A stretch of DNA of 49,955 nucleotides from Candidatus Ratteibacteria bacterium (lineage in GTDB: Bacteria; CAZDME01; JAYEMH01), in NCBI GenBank assembly GCA_034717985.1, contig JAYEMH010000007.1, positions 1-49,955 of the forward strand, written 5' to 3'. The notes under the pieces were generated by a model. That model did no database searches. It saw nothing but the letters and a program-made list of their open reading frames with translations, and was not told the DNA's origin. The translations under genes were made by a program, and so were the position numbers. Below are positions 3,441 to 35,900 of the stretch, piece by piece (position 1 is the stretch's first letter; every line of letters starts with the position of its first letter).

Positions 3441-4479
3441 AGAAGCGATAAGCAAAGTTATTGAAAAAATAGATTTGAGTCAAAGAGAGATGGAATCGGT
3501 AATGGATGAGATTATGACCGGCCGGAGTTCACCGGCTCAAATTGGAGCTTTTCTGACGGCTTTGCGGCTTAAAGGGGAGACGGTTGAAGAAATTACCGGA
3601 GCGGCCCGGGTGATGCGCCAGAAAGCCGCCCGGATAAAAACTTTCGGGGATAAAGTTAAAATCGATGAGGATGAAATTATTGATACCTGCGGCACCGGCG
3701 GAACCGGTACCAATACTTTTAATGTTTCCACTACCAGCGCTTTTGTGGCTGCCGGGGCCGGTTTGAAAGTAGCCAAGCATGGAAACAAATCTGTTTCCTC
3801 CCTCTGCGGCAGCGCCGATGTTATCGATGCCCTGGGGATTAGTTTGAAGCTTAGTTCCGAGGCGGTGGGTGAGTGTATTAAAGAAGTGGGGATAGGTTTT
3901 CTCTTTGCTCCTCTTTTTCATAGAGCGATGAAATATGCCATTGGCCCCCGAAGAGAGATTGGCATCCGCACAATTTTTAACATTTTAGGGCCCTTGACCA
4001 ACCCTGCCGGAGCAACTTCCCAGGTAATGGGTGTTTATGAGGAAAAGCTGACTGAAATTTTAGCCCGGGTGTTAGGGAATCTGGGTCTGAGGCATGCTTT
4101 AGTTGTTCACGGAATGGACGGTCTGGATGAAATTACCGTAACCCGGGAAAGTAAAATTTCTGAATTCAAGGAAGGGAAGGTCAAGACTTATTATCTAAAG
4201 CCGGATGATTTTAGCCTCAGCCGCGCTGTTATGGAAGATATAAAAGGCGGCCGGGTAAAAAAGAATGCCGAGATGGTTATTGAGGTTTTGAAGGGAGAAA
4301 AGGGCGCTCCCCGGGATATAGTTCTGCTTAATGCGGCGGCCGCTTTTATCGCCGCTGATAGAGTAAAGAATTTTAAAGAAGGTATCAATATGGCCGAGGC
4401 CTCTATTGATGAAGGCAAAGCCCTGGAAAAGTTAGAGGCACTTAGGAAAAAGACACAGGAGTTGGGAAAAAGCTGTTGA
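3433..4479 (+). CDS. trpD: Anthranilate phosphoribosyltransferase
   Basis: DTCGTGG, FNVST, KHGN.SVSS..GSAD and GLDE motifs. Start set at ATG 3433 (MIKEAI). Confidence 0.95.
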   Translation: MIKEAISKVIEKIDLSQREMESVMDEIMTGRSSPAQIGAFLTALRLKGETVEEITGAARVMRQKAARIKTFGDKVKIDEDEIIDTCGTGGTGTNTFNVSTTSAFVAAGAGLKVAKHGNKSVSSLCGSADVIDALGISLKLSSEAVGECIKEVGIGFLFAPLFHRAMKYAIGPRREIGIRTIFNILGPLTNPAGATSQVMGVYEEKLTEILARVLGNLGLRHALVVHGMDGLDEITVTRESKISEFKEGKVKTYYLKPDDFSLSRAVMEDIKGGRVKKNAEMVIEVLKGEKGAPRDIVLLNAAAAFIAADRVKNFKEGINMAEASIDEGKALEKLEALRKKTQELGKSC

Positions 4480-5894: not shown

Positions 5895-7272
5895 AAGAGA
5901 ATTTCTTTTTTTATTTATTTTAACCGCTCTTTTTTTTAATCTTGGTCTGGATATTAAAGGGAATATTCTCCACCAGGTGTATTATGTTAAAGGGGTAAAG
6001 GCTTTAAACAATGAGCAATATCCCGAAGCTATCGGGCAATTAAGAAAAGCCTTTGAGATTGACCCGGGTTCTATGAAGATAAAGAAGGCTTTAGCGGTGG
6101 CTTTGAATAATTATGCTCTATCACTTGGAGATGGGAATAAAGAAGAGTCGGTTGAACTTATGGAAGAAGCGATCCGGGTTTTACCTGAAGATACCTCGCC
6201 AAAACAGAATTTAGCGGTGCTGTTTAATGAATGGGGACTGGCGCTTCATAAAAAAGGAGATTTGGAAGGCGCGGCCGAAAAATTTAAAAAAGCGGCAGAG
6301 CTTCACCCCCGAAAAAAAACCTATCAAAAAAATCTGGGCGCTGTCGTGAGCCAGCAGGGGAGTAATTATTTGAAGAAAGGTGAATTTGATTCGGCCATAA
6401 AGGCATTCCATGAAGCTGTCCGATGTATGCCCGAAAGTGAACATCCATGGATAATGATGGGAGACTGTTACTATCAGTTGGATGATCTGGGAGAAGCGAT
6501 AGATTGCTGGGAAGAAGCAAAAAAATTATCGCCTGAGAACCGGCTGGTAAAAAACAGATTAGACAAGGCGAAGAAAGAGTGGCCGGTTCAGAAAAATTTC
6601 GACCAGTTCAGTTCCAGCTATTTTAGAATAAACTTCTCGCCGGATTTTAGCCGCGATAAAACCGACGAAATCTATAATTATGTCAAAGAGGCAATCTGGG
6701 ATGTCGGCCGGGATTTAGGTTTTTATCCCAGGCAGAAATTTTCTGTTTTTGTTTATCAAAGCGAGCAATTTAAAGAAGTTTTCGGGCCCAAAAAACATCT
6801 GGCCGGACTTTATGACGGAAAAATCCATCTCCATATAAACGATAAGACGGCTCCGGAAAGAATAGCGGCCGTGGTCAGGCACGAATATACCCACGCGGTA
6901 ATCTTCTGGATAACTCAGGGGAACTGTCCTCTCTGGCTTAACGAAGGATTGGCCTGTTTTGAAGAGAAAAAAAAGGAGGCCGTTAATTTCAAGGAGCTTA
7001 AAATACCGGCTCAGCAGAATAGACTGATTCCTTTATTTAAGCTTTCAGAGGCCTGTTTTTATTCAGCCGATTTTGAAGAGGCAAGTTTAGCCTACCGGGA
7101 AGCCCACAGTGTGGTGAAATACCTGCTTGGTGAATATGGCTGGTGGACGGTGCGAAAAATACTGGTTTTATTTGGAGAAGGAAAAACGGAGGAAGAGGTT
7201 ATAAAAGAAGCTTTACGGATGACTCCGGCAAGGTTAGAAGAGAAGTGGAGAAGCAGTTTAGACGATGAGTAA
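5887..7272 (+). CDS. TPR-repeat protein with C-terminal zinc metallopeptidase (MA clan) domain
   Basis: N-terminal hydrophobic anchor, TPR repeats, then HEYTH and PLWLNEGLA. Confidence 0.8.
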   Translation: MVKREFLFLFILTALFFNLGLDIKGNILHQVYYVKGVKALNNEQYPEAIGQLRKAFEIDPGSMKIKKALAVALNNYALSLGDGNKEESVELMEEAIRVLPEDTSPKQNLAVLFNEWGLALHKKGDLEGAAEKFKKAAELHPRKKTYQKNLGAVVSQQGSNYLKKGEFDSAIKAFHEAVRCMPESEHPWIMMGDCYYQLDDLGEAIDCWEEAKKLSPENRLVKNRLDKAKKEWPVQKNFDQFSSSYFRINFSPDFSRDKTDEIYNYVKEAIWDVGRDLGFYPRQKFSVFVYQSEQFKEVFGPKKHLAGLYDGKIHLHINDKTAPERIAAVVRHEYTHAVIFWITQGNCPLWLNEGLACFEEKKKEAVNFKELKIPAQQNRLIPLFKLSEACFYSADFEEASLAYREAHSVVKYLLGEYGWWTVRKILVLFGEGKTEEEVIKEALRMTPARLEEKWRSSLDDE

Positions 7273-7353
7273 GAGTTCTTTGGTAAAATTTAATTTTAGT
7301 TAGTGCTTGCCAGAAAATACGTAATGTTATAGGATAGCAGGTTAGGAGGCAAG

Positions 7354-7707
7354 ATGGAGTTAAAGAGTGAATGTTTGTTCTGCCGGATTATTGAAAGAAA
7401 AATTCCGGCTAAGGTTATTTATGAAAACGAGAAGGTTTTAGCCTTCCACGATATTAACCCTCAAGCTCCGGTTCATATTATTGTTATTCCCAAGAATCAC
7501 ATCGAGCGGGTTTCTGATTTGAAGCGGGAAAATGCCGGCTGGGGAGACGAACTAATTCTGGCGGCGAATAAAATTGCCTCCGATTTAGAGATAAAAGACA
7601 GTGGATACCGTTTAATCATTAATTGCAACAAAGATGCCGGACAGGCAGTTTTTCATCTTCATCTCCATCTCCTCGGCGGACGAAAAATGGCTTGGCCCCC
7701 GGGATGA
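7354..7707 (+). CDS. hinT: Histidine triad (HIT) nucleotide-binding protein
   Basis: CLFC, DINPQAPVH, HLHLHLLGG and WPPG motifs. RBS AGGAGG. Confidence 0.92.
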   Translation: MELKSECLFCRIIERKIPAKVIYENEKVLAFHDINPQAPVHIIVIPKNHIERVSDLKRENAGWGDELILAANKIASDLEIKDSGYRLIINCNKDAGQAVFHLHLHLLGGRKMAWPPG

Positions 7708-7710
7708 AAT

Positions 7711-7755
7711 TAGTCAACAGTTAATAGTCCATAGACCATAGTCGATAGTCCATAG
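7711..7755. repeat. Left arm of heptamer inverted repeat (six TAGTCCA-like units)
   Basis: tagtcaa cagttaa tagtcca tagacca tagtcga tagtcca tag. Confidence 0.9.
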
Positions 7756-7824
7756 AGAGAAGAAGTCCAAAGGCGATAGAAAAAACTGTGGACTATGGAC
7801 TAACCGAACGAAGTGAGGTTAAGG

Positions 7825-8177
7825 ATGTTTAAATTTGAAAAGCTGAAAGTTTGGCAGAGAGCAATAAATCTCAGTGCAGAAATTCATAATTTAACTAGAG
7901 AATTCCCTAGAGAGGAATTATATATATATTGGCCAGTCAGATTAAACGAGCCGGAGATTCTATTGCTTTAAATATTGCCGAAGGTTCAACTGGTCAAAGC
8001 AGTGCGGAGTTTAACCAGTTTTTAGGATATGCTATTAGGTCAGCAATTGAGGTTGTCTCGTGTCTGTTCATTGGCAGAGAGAGAAAGATCGTAAATAAGA
8101 GAAATTTCGAGAAATTATATAATGAATTAGAAGAAATTATTAAAATGCTTCAGGGATTACGCAATTCACTTAAATAA
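7825..8177 (+). pseudogene. Four-helix-bundle protein (23S rRNA IVS / Avd-like family), frameshifted in a (TA)5 tract
   Basis: Frame 1 gives MFKFEKLKVWQRAINLSAEIHNLTREFPREELYI. The protein continues in another frame as LASQIKRAGDSIALNIAEG...FLGYAIRSAIEV. Removing one TA at 7919-7928 gives an intact 116-aa ORF. Confidence 0.88.
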
Positions 8178-8222
8178 CTGTGGATTATTAACTATGGACT
8201 GCGGACTGTCGACTATGGACTA
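8178..8222. repeat. Right arm of heptamer inverted repeat (six CTATGGA-like units)
   Basis: ctgtgga ttattaa ctatgga ctgcgga ctgtcga ctatgga cta. Same length as 7711-7755 and its degenerate reverse complement. Confidence 0.9.
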
Positions 8223-8236
8223 GATGGGAGGAAGCA

Positions 8237-9442
8237 ATGATTCCGATAGAGTTAATTTCTAAACTTGCGGTAGAAAATAAAGCCAGGATAATCTATCTGG
8301 TTATCGATGGATTGGGAGGTTTACCCTCAGAGGACGGAAAAACAGAATTGGAGTTTGCTTCTACACCTGAGTTGGATAAATTAGCCGGGGATTCTATCTG
8401 CGGGTTAAGTATTCCCGTCTCTTTCGGTATTACCCCGGGCAGCGGGCCGGGACACCTGAGTTTGTTTGGCTATGACCCGCTTAAATATGAAATTGGCCGG
8501 GGGGCTTTATCCGCGGCCGGGATTGGTTTTTATCAAGAAAAAAATGATTTAGCCGTTCGGATTAACTTTGCTACCCTGGATTCAGCCGGGCGGGTAAGTG
8601 ATAGACGGGCCGGAAGGATTTCTACCACCAGGGCGGCCCGGTTATGCCGGCTGCTTGAAGAAGGTCTTGATTTGAAGGAGATAAAAGTTTTTATCCGCTC
8701 AGTAAAGGAACATCGGGGAGTAGTGATTTTCCGCGGCAAGAAACTTTCGGATAGAATAACCGATTCGGACCCGCAGATTAGCGGGGTTTCCCCTCTGGCG
8801 GTAAAAGCAAAAGAAAAATCGGCCCAGGCAACCGCTAAAATGGTTAATCAATTTTTGTCTAAAGTAAAAAAGATTCTTAAAGACGAAAAACCGGCTAATA
8901 TGATTTTAATGAGGGGATTTGCCAAAGCTCCGCATCTTCCCCAAATGAAGGCTCTTTACAAATTAAATCCAGCGGTTATTGCCGGTTACCCGATGTATAA
9001 AGGTATTGCCAGACTTATGGGCATGGAAGTTCTTAAAACCGGGGAAAATATGGCAGGGGAATTTGAAACACTGGAGAAGAATTTTTCAAGGTTTAATTTC
9101 TTTTTTGTTCACATTAAAGGGACAGACAGCGCCGGTGAAGATGGTGATTTTAAACGGAAGGTTAAAGTTATTGAAGAGGTAGACGGGTATATTGCCGGAT
9201 TAAGGGCCTTGAATCCTGAGGTGCTGGTAGTGGCCGGCGATCATTCCACCCCGGCCGCTTTGAAACTGCACAGCTGGCATCCTAGTCCGTTTTTGTTGCA
9301 TTCTAAGTGGTGCCGCCGTGATGAGGTCAGGAGTTTTTCTGAAAAAGATTGTTTGCGGGGAGGGCTGGGTTTATTTTCCGCTTTAGATATTATGCCTTTA
9401 GTCCTGGCCAATGCAGGTAAGCTTAAAAAATTAGGAGCTTGA
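8237..9442 (+). CDS. apgM: 2,3-bisphosphoglycerate-independent phosphoglycerate mutase (archaeal-type ApgM)
   Basis: [33 protein letters not shown] and GDHSTP motifs. Confidence 0.88.
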
Positions 9443-14844: not shown

Positions 14845-14992
14845 TTAATTACCAATAACCAAGATACAAGTTACAAACAATCACCAATATTCAATAACCA
14901 ATTACCAAACATGATTTTACTATATTTTTTGGTTATTTGAATTTGGTTACTGGTCATTGTTTGATTATTGTTTCTTGATTATTGGTTATTTT
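14845..14992 (-). repeat. ~150-bp heptamer-built hairpin element, copy 1 (TAACCAA family), inverted relative to copies 2 and 3
   Basis: Its reverse complement aligns colinearly with 22593-22732 and 16514-16690. Arms are of the aaccaat and attggtt types. Confidence 0.88.
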
Positions 14993-15681: not shown

Positions 15682-15684
15682 AGA

Positions 15685-15772
15685 CCGTATATCGTATTCC
15701 GTATTTCGTATACCGCAAGTATTTTTTCCTGTTTAAGAATCACGATATACGAACGACAGTATACGGAAGACG
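15685..15772. repeat. Heptamer inverted repeat (CGTAT family)
   Basis: Left arm ccgtata tcgtatt ccgtatt tcgtata. Right arm acgatat acgaacg acagtat acggaag. Confidence 0.75.
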
Positions 15773-15777
15773 AAAAT

Positions 15778-16513: not shown

Positions 16514-16707
16514 AAAATAACCAAGATACAAGAAACAATAACCAAATAATAACCAATAACCAAATTCAAATAACCAAAAAATATGATAAAATTAGTAATA
16601 AACTGATAGGTTTGATGATTGGTTATTGAATATTGATGATTGTTTGTAACTTGTATCTTGGTGATTGGTGATTTAGGTAATTGGTGATTTAATAGATATC
16701 TTTGACA
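16514..16707 (+). repeat. Heptamer-built hairpin element, copy 2 (TAACCAA family)
   Basis: aaccaagatacaagaaacaataaccaaataataaccaataaccaaattcaaataaccaaaaaatat...ttggttattgaatattg...ttggtgatttaatagatatctttgaca. Confidence 0.88.
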
Positions 16708-22437: not shown

Positions 22438-22514
22438 CGGGGCGTGGCGTAGCTTGGCAGCGCACTCCCTTGGGGTGGGAGAGGTCGTCCGTTCGAATCG
22501 GATCGTCCCGACCA
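22438..22514 (+). tRNA. tRNA-Pro(GGG)
   Basis: Acceptor stem cggggcg/cgtcccg, anticodon arm ctccc-ttGGGgt-gggag, T-loop ttcgaat, CCA end. Confidence 0.95.
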
Positions 22515-22516
22515 AA

Positions 22517-22747
22517 CTCGTATCTCGTATGTTGTATTTCGTATCTCGTGAAAAACAAAGATAAAAAAATTGAAATACGAGATACAAGATACAATAACCA
22601 AGAAACAATAACCAAATAATGACCAATAACCAAATTCAAATAACCAAAAAATATAATAAAATTATGTTTGGTGATTGGTTATCGAATATTGGAATTTATT
22701 TGTATCTTGTATCTTGGTTATTGGTGATTTAATAGATATTTTTGACA
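22517..22747 (+). repeat. Composite heptamer element: CGTAT-family hairpin (22517-22594) fused to TAACCAA-family copy 3 (22593-22747)
   Basis: tcgtatc tcgtatg ttgtatt tcgtatc...gaaatac gagatac aagatac aataacc aagaaac...ttggttattggtgatttaatagatatttttgaca. Confidence 0.88.
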
Positions 22748-24079: not shown

Positions 24080-24114
24080 ATAGGTGATAGGGAATAGGGA
24101 GTAGGTGTTAGGTG
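24080..24114 (+). repeat. Heptamer tandem array (five ATAGGGA-like units), single arm
   Basis: ataggtg ataggga ataggga gtaggtg ttaggtg. Confidence 0.75.
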
Positions 24115-24115
24115 A

Positions 24116-24478
24116 ATGAGGAAAAAGGAATTGGGGTTAACTTTAGTTGAAGTAATGATTGTAATTTGTATTCTGGGTTTGATAATTGCCGTGGCTTTGC
24201 CAAATTTTTTGCGGGCTAGACGGGAGGCAAATGCTAAACTTTGTCTTACTAATCTTAAACAGATTGAGGCGGCCAAGGAACGTTGGAGTTTTTCTTACGG
24301 AGCGGCTCTTGATGAAGAAATTTATATAACAGATTTAGTTCCGGACTTTATAAGGGTGGCTCCTGTTTGCCCGGACAACGGAGAGTATACGCCGGGAATC
24401 CTCGTCGATAATCCAACTTGCAGTATCGGCACAAATAATACAGCTGAAATATTTGACGACCACGAATTACCTTATTAA
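24116..24478 (+). CDS. Prepilin-type N-terminal cleavage/methylation protein (type IV pilin / pseudopilin)
   Basis: G|LTLVEVMIVICILGLIIAVALPNF, C..NLKQI and the CP..G.Y...P.CS pattern. Confidence 0.88.
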   Translation: MRKKELGLTLVEVMIVICILGLIIAVALPNFLRARREANAKLCLTNLKQIEAAKERWSFSYGAALDEEIYITDLVPDFIRVAPVCPDNGEYTPGILVDNPTCSIGTNNTAEIFDDHELPY

Positions 24479-24480
24479 AA

Positions 24481-24628
24481 TAGACCATAGACGATAGACC
24501 ACAGACAATAGACTAAGGTGAAAAAAATAAATAGAGATTAAAAGAATTATAGGCAAAAAATCAGGAAGGATACTCCAGAGGTTGACTGTTTACATAGAAA
24601 AGTCTGAAGTCTAATGTCTATAGTCTGC
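24481..24628. repeat. Heptamer inverted repeat (TAGACCA family) with an ~85-bp loop
   Basis: Left arm tagacca tagacga tagacca cagacaa tagacta. Right arm agtctga agtctaa tgtctat agtctgc. Confidence 0.8.
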
Positions 24629-35140: not shown

Positions 35141-35900
35141 AACTAATAACTAAGGACAGCGACTAGTTTTCTATTGATTTTGTGTTGTGGTATAGTAATA
35201 TAGGTTAATCATGCCAAGGATAGCAAGGGTTGTAATTCCAGGATACCCGCATCACATCACACAGCGAGGCAATTATAAACAGAAAACTTTTTCAGATGAT
35301 GTCGATTATGAACAATATTTGAAATGGTTGTCAAAATATTGTGTTGACTATAAGCTGTCTATTTTAGCGTATTGCCTTATGCTAAATCATGTACATTTGA
35401 TAGCGATTCCACACAAAGAAGATTCTTTAGCAAGAACATTCAATACATGTCATATGCGATATTCTCAATACTATAATACGAAGCAGAATCAGAAAGGGCA
35501 TCTTTGGCAGGGGAGGTTTTACTCATGTGTCTTAGATGAATATCATCTTTATGAAGCTATAAGATATGTTGAGAATAATCCGGTAAGGGCTAAGATAGCA
35601 AAGAAAGCAGAAAAGTGGAAATGGTCCAGCGCAAAGGCACATTTAAATAAAGGGAAAAGCATTTTAGAGTTAGAAAAAGCAGGCGATTATATAGCTGTAT
35701 CTGATTGGAAGCAGTATCTGGTGGAGAGAGAAGATGAAGCTGTAATAGATAAAATAAAATCTAATACATTAACCGGAAGGCCCTCAGGGAAAGATTTATT
35801 TGTGGGAAAAATAGAGAAAATGTTTGGTAAAAGGCTGAGGCCCTTACCAGAAGGAAGGCCTAGGAAAAGGAAAACTAGTCGCTGTCCCTAGTTTCTAGTT
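35141..35900 (+). mobile_element. RAYT element bounded by 31-bp inverted repeats
   Basis: 35141-35171 (aactaataactaaggacagcgactagttttc) and 35870-35900 (gaaaactagtcgctgtccctagtttctagtt) match 28/31 as reverse complements. Confidence 0.8.
35211..35891 (+). CDS. REP-associated tyrosine transposase (RAYT, Y1 HUH family)
   Basis: MPR.AR, HITQRGN, YCLM.NHVHL (HUH), GHLWQGRF and YVENNPVRA motifs. Confidence 0.92.
   Translation: MPRIARVVIPGYPHHITQRGNYKQKTFSDDVDYEQYLKWLSKYCVDYKLSILAYCLMLNHVHLIAIPHKEDSLARTFNTCHMRYSQYYNTKQNQKGHLWQGRFYSCVLDEYHLYEAIRYVENNPVRAKIAKKAEKWKWSSAKAHLNKGKSILELEKAGDYIAVSDWKQYLVEREDEAVIDKIKSNTLTGRPSGKDLFVGKIEKMFGKRLRPLPEGRPRKRKTSRCP

Follow-up and report, generated by a model that had tools for sequence, protein, structure and literature searches.

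Intervening sequences (IVSs) that carry an open reading frame (ORF) in the 23S rRNA genes of Coxiella burnetii, Leptospira and other bacteria encode the S23p protein of the PF05635 family; the ORF is often decaying, and these elements are regarded as selfish (PMC4990558). In the Coxiella IVS, heptameric repeats precede the S23p ORF and RNase III cuts at the first repeat (PMC4990558), and members of the family have also been reported in rRNA inserts of bacteria of the candidate phyla radiation (CPR; bioRxiv 10.1101/2024.02.27.582315). The present analysis concerns a cassette of the same protein family that lies outside rRNA, on a 49,955-nt contig of a Candidatus Ratteibacteria bacterium (assembly GCA_034717985.1, contig JAYEMH010000007.1; this whole stretch is referred to below as the window). 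The cassette consists of a PF05635 gene with its own leader, placed between two inverted arrays, each 31 nt long and made up of five YAG-N4 units. As far as the accessible text on the IVSs goes, the two have in common the protein family encoded in the loop, terminal inverted repeats as the base of a stem enclosing the ORF, and heptameric direct repeats of variable number upstream of the ORF. They differ in that the window cassette sits between the protein-coding operon genes HIT and apgM instead of in a 23S or 16S rRNA helix, that each of its arms is in turn an array of five phased units, and that excision by RNase III is known for the IVS and would be a prediction for the window cassette. The 23S rRNA gene of the source genome (C36:13426-16390) measures 2965 nt against a model of 2925 positions and is therefore without an insert.

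Our overall reading, to which we would give a probability of about one half, is that this is a mobile cassette of the IVS type and that the pentamer which it encodes probably binds to the arrays in its arms. What is descriptive in this reading, namely that a gene of the IVS-protein family was inserted as one unit together with inverted arms of five units each, can be put forward with high confidence; the part in which a PF05635 ring would bind the arms is offered tentatively, from the pattern of the units. The copy in the window appears to be decaying, its site is demonstrably polymorphic, and an intact sister copy is present elsewhere in the genome. The parts of the cassette, followed by its two neighbours, are as follows.

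7711..7724, + strand: outer two heptamer-like units (TAGTCAA CAGTTAA), largely pre-existing flank; not in the paralog, and an empty-site contig of metagenome run X4 matches through 7721

7725..7755, + strand: core left arm of five TAG triplets with 4-nt spacers (4x7+3 nt); pairs with 8192-8222 and is also present in the paralog and in gene-less hairpins of other contigs

7756..7785, + strand: purine-rich spacer with two degenerate units, serving as the loop in the local hairpin; 2 substitutions separate it from the paralog on contig C6

7786..7802, + strand: internal short right-type arm (CTGTGGA CTATGGA CTA); pairs with 7739-7755 over 17 nt at 88%

7803..7824, + strand: 22-nt leader with a ribosome-binding site before the ATG; the same sequence is in the paralog and otherwise nowhere in the genome

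7825..8177, + strand: PF05635/TIGR02436 four-helix-bundle gene, frameshifted by 2 additional nt (AT) that fall within an (AT)n run, at about 7919-7920

8178..8191, + strand: the two right-arm units nearest the gene (CTGTGGA TTATTAA), within the insert; one unit is absent from the paralog

8192..8222, + strand: core right arm of five CTR triplets at 7-nt spacing, an unbroken run of 5 phased units and the right end of the insert, where paralog homology stops (8222)

7354..7707, + strand: HIT-family gene, upstream neighbour outside the insert (PF01230, 102 bits)

8237..9442, + strand: apgM, cofactor-independent phosphoglycerate mutase, downstream neighbour (PF10143, 155 bits)

In the loci compared, enclosure by mirror-image heptamer runs is typical of PF05635 genes across bacteria. 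In the source genome (1.01 Mb in 49 contigs, 42.6% G+C, 88% complete, with the window as contig C7), all five PF05635 genes are enclosed by inverted repeat arrays as judged by eye, and four of the five by a test that requires an ungapped arm score above all 20 shuffles (18.6 for the window cassette, against a maximum of 10.0 among its shuffles). The same test was passed by 10 of 150 random ORFs, only one of them with period 7 (Fisher p 0.0002). The units of the five cassettes are TAGTCCA (twice), CGTATNN, GGTTGNN and TTGACNN. Relatives were searched for with a 6-sequence alignment, and a first set of 109 loci from many phyla was assembled from the window, 28 loci found by whole-genome searches and 80 named genome contigs. 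Arms were found at 91 of its 107 evaluable loci, the best period being 7 in 65, 8 in 8, 9 in 2 and 11 in 1, with none in 15. A replicate set of 80 independent metagenome loci gave arms at 54 of 68 evaluable loci, with a best period of 7 in 38 and of 8 in 13. The longest arms seen, at locus L030 (about 1280-2000 of G037:C3), enclose a PF05635 gene; each of them measures 128 nt and comprises about 18 AGTCTCC/GGTCGCC units. At another locus, on a Chloroploca contig (L076), one complete hairpin stands on either side of the gene rather than one around it, an alternative layout of the same parts.

Upstream arms are purine-rich (61%; 67 of 91 loci), and after rotation their consensus unit reads AG-(T/G)-N-N-N-(T/C). 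The dinucleotide AG is found in the consensus unit of 56 of the 65 period-7 loci, as compared with 16 for CT, and the corresponding counts in the replicate are 34 and 9 of 38. The motif information amounts to 4.81 bits versus 3.73 +/- 0.14 in 60 letter-shuffles, the maximum of which was 4.13, and within the arrays of both arms the A (0.90) and the G (0.95-0.97) are the best conserved positions, the others reaching 0.78-0.87. Uninterrupted phased-AG runs of four, five and six units were counted 14, 32 and 4 times upstream and 16, 38 and 5 times downstream among 103 period-7 loci. The 22 cassettes with 8-nt units (L042, L066, L149, L150, L160 and 17 others) contain phased AG in 21 cases, and their arms again peak at five (8 upstream and 8 downstream), with zero at six. 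The arm test drops very short arms and imposes no upper bound, and the drop from five to six is therefore not an artefact of selection. Over the whole source genome, phased-AG runs of four, five and six number 79, 44 and 11, compared with 48, 2 and 0 in the shuffled genome. Both the phased AG within the units and the modal number of five units per arm, at a spacing of 7 or 8 nt, are newly described here.

Another explanation for such arrays would be that heptamer hairpins are generic punctuation, i.e. terminators, insulators, mRNA-stability hairpins or products of slippage, and that a gene came to lie between two of them by chance. The source genome is indeed rich in arrays, with 98 strict period-7 arrays versus one in a block-shuffled copy (periods 5, 6 and 8-11 gave 2-23) and 22 hairpin pairs, and arrays are also located beside pilin-like genes and tRNA genes. 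Moreover, a stop codon read inward is present in 41 of 65 units of the first set compared with 28.9 +/- 3.4 in shuffles, which would fit three-frame translation stops. However, the replicate showed only a weak enrichment of stop codons (23 inward versus 17 outward, of 38), and 24 of the 65 units have none at all; three-frame stops were rejected as the cause of period 7 and are a side effect at most. In addition, period-7 inverted flanks were seen at one of 150 control ORFs, as against flanking arms at four of five PF05635 genes in the same test; the arms accompany the gene to a second locus and are missing together with it from empty sites; and the association holds across unrelated phyla. Generic punctuation is accordingly disfavoured, and we regard it as very improbable.

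The window also contains gene-less heptamer hairpins at 14860-14990, 15684-15775, 16516-16700, 22517-22730 and 24480-24626, with units of the AATAACC, CGTATNN, ATACAAG and ATAGACC families, some of them nested; one set directly follows a tRNA-like sequence whose end is near 22510. Heptamer arrays also flank small genes that have a prepilin-type N-terminus, at window positions 24110-24478 and at C4:3282-3729 of the source genome (G000), and the C4 copy additionally lies between direct repeats aaaaaactatgcctgcctgccgg, which suggests a tandem cassette-like duplication.

The limits and the mobility of the cassette can be judged from its sister copy and from empty sites. Contig C6 of the source genome carries a copy with the same arms and an intact gene (118.3 bits on TIGR02436, cut-off 24). 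The two genes are 94% identical: 21 of 351 nt differ, the changed codons being synonymous in 9 cases and nonsynonymous in 11, and only 3 substitutions separate the 100 nt upstream of them; homology spans 7726-8222 and the flanks are unrelated. In both same-family genomes analyzed (G001 and G002) HIT is directly followed by apgM (79% and 72% identity to the apgM of the window, respectively) across spacers of 56 and 62 nt that contain neither the gene nor the arms. The original prediction had proposed a search for HIT-apgM junctions lacking the whole element, and besides these two genomes such junctions were obtained in one contig each from two of four metagenome sequencing runs. In the contig from run X2, which is about 96% identical to the window where it matches, only 4 letters separate 7709 from 8227; in that from run X4, about 93% identical where it matches, 30 diverged letters stand between 7721 and 8253. 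As HIT and apgM are joined in relatives without the element, the element is an insertion; the insert extends from about 7722/7725 to 8222, roughly 500 bp. No direct repeat was evident at 7722-7725 and 8223-8226, where the comparison relies on the joints of empty-site contigs that are 4-7% diverged.

Further polymorphism is found at other sites of this family. Two cassettes of G001 occupy sites that are vacant in the source genome, one of which has a zero spacer there and the other a one-sided TAGGTNN array. Together with the empty HIT-apgM sites, this shows that cassettes are gained or lost as units within the time-scale of this family. The second of these sites (C5:15916-16030 in the source genome) corresponds to the G001 cassette L029 with TAGCGTN arms, and its one-sided TAGGTNN array is followed by a G+C hairpin; one intergenic site holds different heptamer families in two relatives (G000 and G001).

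The gene between the arms had been described from the letters as a four-helix-bundle gene. Its identity was upheld by the PF05635 match, but a frameshift had been overlooked. The window gene is split into ORFs 7813-7971 and 7929-8177, which match PF05635 positions 1-29 and 32-106, respectively; the C-terminal ORF scores 80.8 bits (cut-off 33.8), and the N-terminal piece, with 27.9 bits, stays under the cut-off on its own. An intact frame of about 115-130 aa is thus missing from this copy. The 2 extra nt, judged against the C6 paralog, are also lacking in two metagenome contigs of related copies (X4 record 27 and X2 record 10), and no near-identical contig over the gene body (7794-8171) was found among the contigs of the four sequencing runs. 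Decay of the window copy is a simpler reading of the frameshift than an assembly error. The helix-face motif GxxRxxxSxxxNxxE is retained in the second ORF, and in a 20-sequence alignment of the family the residues R41, N49, E52 and G53 never vary, with S45 almost as constant. The relatives of the C6 protein in the PDB (2gsc and 2rld) have five chains per entry, and a Xanthomonas protein of the PF05635 family is a homopentameric toroid (PMC4990558).

The cassette very probably entered the spacer of the HIT-apgM operon as one unit in this lineage. In the polycistronic transcript its arms would close a long stem around the gene, like the 23S rRNA intervening sequences that are excised by RNase III, and the stem and its processing might render an insertion between cistrons, or in rRNA, tolerable. 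Each arm would provide five binding sites for one homopentameric ring encoded by the gene; such a ring would be a wrap-around reader, with a logic comparable to that of the TRAP ring on GAG/UAG repeats. Its binding could give autoregulation, and gene-less hairpins of a like unit may be further sites for the protein acting in trans. A broader and rather doubtful extension is that PF05635 rings in general are sequence-specific readers of five phased AG units, that every such gene moves together with its own array in two copies of opposite orientation, that this protein-plus-repeat module seeds gene-less heptamer hairpins and so explains much of the heptamer excess, and that rRNA IVSs are the copies that landed in rRNA. 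The PF05635/23S IVS proteins form a very large family in which structures have been solved and to which no function has been assigned, and five phased AG units per five-subunit ring would be a hypothesis that can be tested at the bench.

The pairing of the arms was one of the subjects of the original prediction, which had placed two 45-nt arms of 6x7+3 nt around the gene, the left one starting just past the HIT stop (HIT ends at 7707, the arm begins at 7711), the right one starting on the base after the stop of the gene (TAA at 8175-8177, arm from 8178) and finishing at 8222, just ahead of GGGAGG, the ribosome-binding site of apgM, and 14 nt 5' of its ATG (8237). All of these coordinates are correct, and 7711-7755 and 8178-8222 are 73% complementary at a distance of 422 nt, but the arms that belong to the element itself are the 31-nt cores, 7725-7755 with 8192-8222, which form the best sub-pair (81% complementary). 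The shorter right-type arm at 7786-7802 with ccgaacgaagtgagg after it was present as well. In the RNA fold of 7705-8228 the minimum free energy (MFE) is -139.6 kcal/mol (z -5.5, none of 100 shuffles as good) and the structure is closed by both arms, so that terminal inverted repeats closing a stem around the ORF, a character of IVSs, are seen both in arm pairing and in the MFE fold. When the 5' part is folded alone, 7739-7755 pairs with 7786-7802 (-25.6 kcal/mol, z -3.8, none of 200 shuffles). The suggestion that the left arm can pair either locally or across the whole gene was hence borne out, both folds being better than shuffles.

From these pairings a different model had been drawn, in which the internal arm is a two-state regulator and the gene-less hairpins arise when the two right-type arms recombine and the gene is lost. 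Its merits are that the local and the long-range pairing are both thermodynamically credible, that the local module of internal arm and spacer, as well as the leader, is kept in the C6 paralog with the few upstream substitutions given above, and that the unit number of the internal arm differs between copies (one more unit in the paralog and 14 additional nt in a metagenome contig of run X4). On the other hand, only 4 of the 61 loci whose spacer measures at least 25 nt have an internal right-type arm, two of the four being the window element and its C6 paralog, and the local hairpin is followed by no U-run and was not recognized by a terminator scan. The predicted product of a gene-only deletion was absent from the contigs of the four runs. 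Joints from 7753/7756 to 8192 were found in three runs; their loops of 8-19 nt are unrelated and their flanks unlike, and they are therefore hairpins of the same unit family that lack the gene and lie at other loci. In other contigs, the match of such hairpins covers 7723/7726-7756 and 8192-8221. The loops of six heptamer-array regions of the source genome (four simple gene-less hairpins and two compound arrays) hold no remnant of gene or leader. The alternative pairing does exist, but as a feature of this subfamily rather than as a design principle, and the two-state model with deletion by recombination seems improbable.

A conserved motif of about CTACTTGTGCCCGTTAG adjoins or sits inside the right arms of gene-less TAGTCCA hairpins (C30:14846-14860, C30:23319-23330 and C36:27130-27150), and its reverse complement is the 18-nt insertion found within the left arm of the C6 cassette, the intact one. 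On C30, two of the hairpins share a 40-nt loop and resemble a small repeat family of their own.

All ORFs of at least 100 aa between 169 and 14261 are on the + strand except for one embedded ORF (3529-3921, - strand). A promoter and terminator scan of 7250-8350 gave no signal above shuffles, and an Rfam scan of 7300-8600 returned zero families at E <= 1.

Several observations weigh against an IVS-like cassette whose arms are read by its own ring. As regards the stem, the long stem and its cleavage in the transcript are predicted only, and RNase III domains were not found in the 88%-complete assembly, although both family relatives have them. Mismatches between arms show no wobble bias on the sense strand, either in the first set (116 G:T versus 101 A:C, p 0.34) or in the replicate (52 versus 45). 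When arrays were anchored by phased AG, independently of pairing, variant units were in mirror order in 6 and in same-direction order in 8 of 20 loci, with 6 ties. With respect to mobility, neither a target-site duplication nor a recombinase was evident. As for the reader, three of the five cassettes of the source genome have no AG in their units (CGTATNN, GGTTGNN and TTGACNN), and the extended upstream arm of the window contains 7-8 phased AG rather than five. Given neither wobble bias nor mirror order, nothing points to selection on an exact RNA stem, and the complementarity of the arms reflects a shared unit and not base-by-base compensation. With arms selected by alignment, hairpin order does win in 29 loci against 5, with 9 ties, because these arms were chosen by their pairing. 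A stem may form, in several registers, but the data do not support it as a target of selection. A unit-wise reverse complement in preserved order, which fits the window better (35 versus 31 of 42), was also considered and rejected as not general.

The strongest rival is a trans-acting enzyme at the level of DNA: the cassette would be a mobile element whose arms are terminal inverted repeats or single-stranded DNA hairpins for an enzyme supplied in trans, for instance the Y1 transposase encoded in the window, and the four-helix gene would be its cargo or an accessory. The symmetry of the arms, with G:T about equal to A:C, the sharp ends of the insert at the arm termini and the differences in cassette sites among the three family genomes would all be expected from it. 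The candidate enzyme and its repeats are located in the window as follows.

35211-35891: Y1 tyrosine transposase gene, 226 aa; its best NCBIfam match is to the REP (repetitive extragenic palindromic)-associated tyrosine transposase (NF047646), with 67.6 bits, under the cut-off of 80

35141-35171 and 35870-35900: inverted repeats flanking the Y1 gene, 31 nt, 90% complementary; a solo third copy is at C41:1437

A second, weaker Y1 match is located at C39:63482-63664. Among 41 genomes, a Y1_Tnp match was recorded in 16 of 18 with PF05635 versus 12 of 23 without (Fisher p 0.018); however, Y1_Tnp is common anyway and these genomes are neither independent nor size-matched. Furthermore, the repeats around the Y1 gene are of a different sequence with only 3 copies in the genome, a Y1 match was lacking in two cassette-bearing genomes, one of them that with the 128-nt arms (L030, G037), and neither a duplicated target nor a conserved cleavage motif was observed. 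We consider a trans-acting DNA enzyme unlikely and retain the cassette with self-encoded ring as the preferred reading.

Heptamer repeats have been described in bacteria independently of PF05635. The GGGAATC heptamers of Xanthomonas form convergent pairs, 70 and 75 in two genomes, and have been left unexplained (PMC4692102). Like the arrays of the window, they are intergenic arrays on opposite strands, close together, dispersed and variable in length (PMC4692102). Unlike them, they are discussed as G-quadruplexes with no link to a gene, the term 'four helix' having 0 occurrences in the portion of that paper available (PMC4692102), whereas the window arrays enclose a PF05635 gene and are not of the G-quadruplex type. 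Repeats of TAACTGA have been reported as well (PMC4679880), and the over-representation of heptamers in bacteria has been noted in print without explanation, at least in the accessible text of these two reports (PMC4692102, PMC4679880). A full-text search, which did not cover subscription journals, found no literature linking PF05635 to flanking heptamer arrays outside rRNA. The cassette ties the IVS protein family to the excess of heptamer repeats in bacteria.

Genes annotated as 23S_rRNA_IVP are known inside cas operons, e.g. between cmr3 and cmr2, and have been read as CRISPR-associated (PMC3936711). They resemble the window gene in that the same family is wedged between genes of an operon and in the motif GxxRxxxSxxxNxxE, which both contain; they differ in that flanking repeats go unmentioned in the available part of that text (PMC3936711). 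As a warning for annotation, PF05635 genes inside operons, such as those of cas loci (PMC3936711), may be inserts and not partners of their neighbours.

The Avd protein of diversity-generating retroelements (DGRs) belongs to a homologous four-helix-bundle fold family. The score on the Avd equivalog NF033474 is only 20 bits here (cut-off 80), and the reverse transcriptase PF00078 gave zero matches in the 88%-complete genome, so that an accessory role in a DGR is rejected as far as a genome of that completeness allows. REP elements are dispersed short hairpin repeats, and the genes of their REP-associated tyrosine transposases (RAYTs) are flanked by inverted repeats. Dispersed hairpin repeats and a gene flanked by repeats in inverted orientation are shared with the present system, but the enclosed gene here encodes a PF05635 four-helix bundle without an HUH/Y1 motif, many unit sequences coexist in one genome, and the Y1 gene of the window has repeats of its own. 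TRAP is a ring of 11 subunits on 11 GAG/UAG repeats with spacers of 2-3 nt; the likeness is one of logic only, the number of ring subunits being equal to the number of short phased purine motifs on the RNA; the TRAP fold is unrelated to PF05635, and 11 subunits stand against five. Among the systems compared, the cassette outside rRNA is an element of the IVS type.

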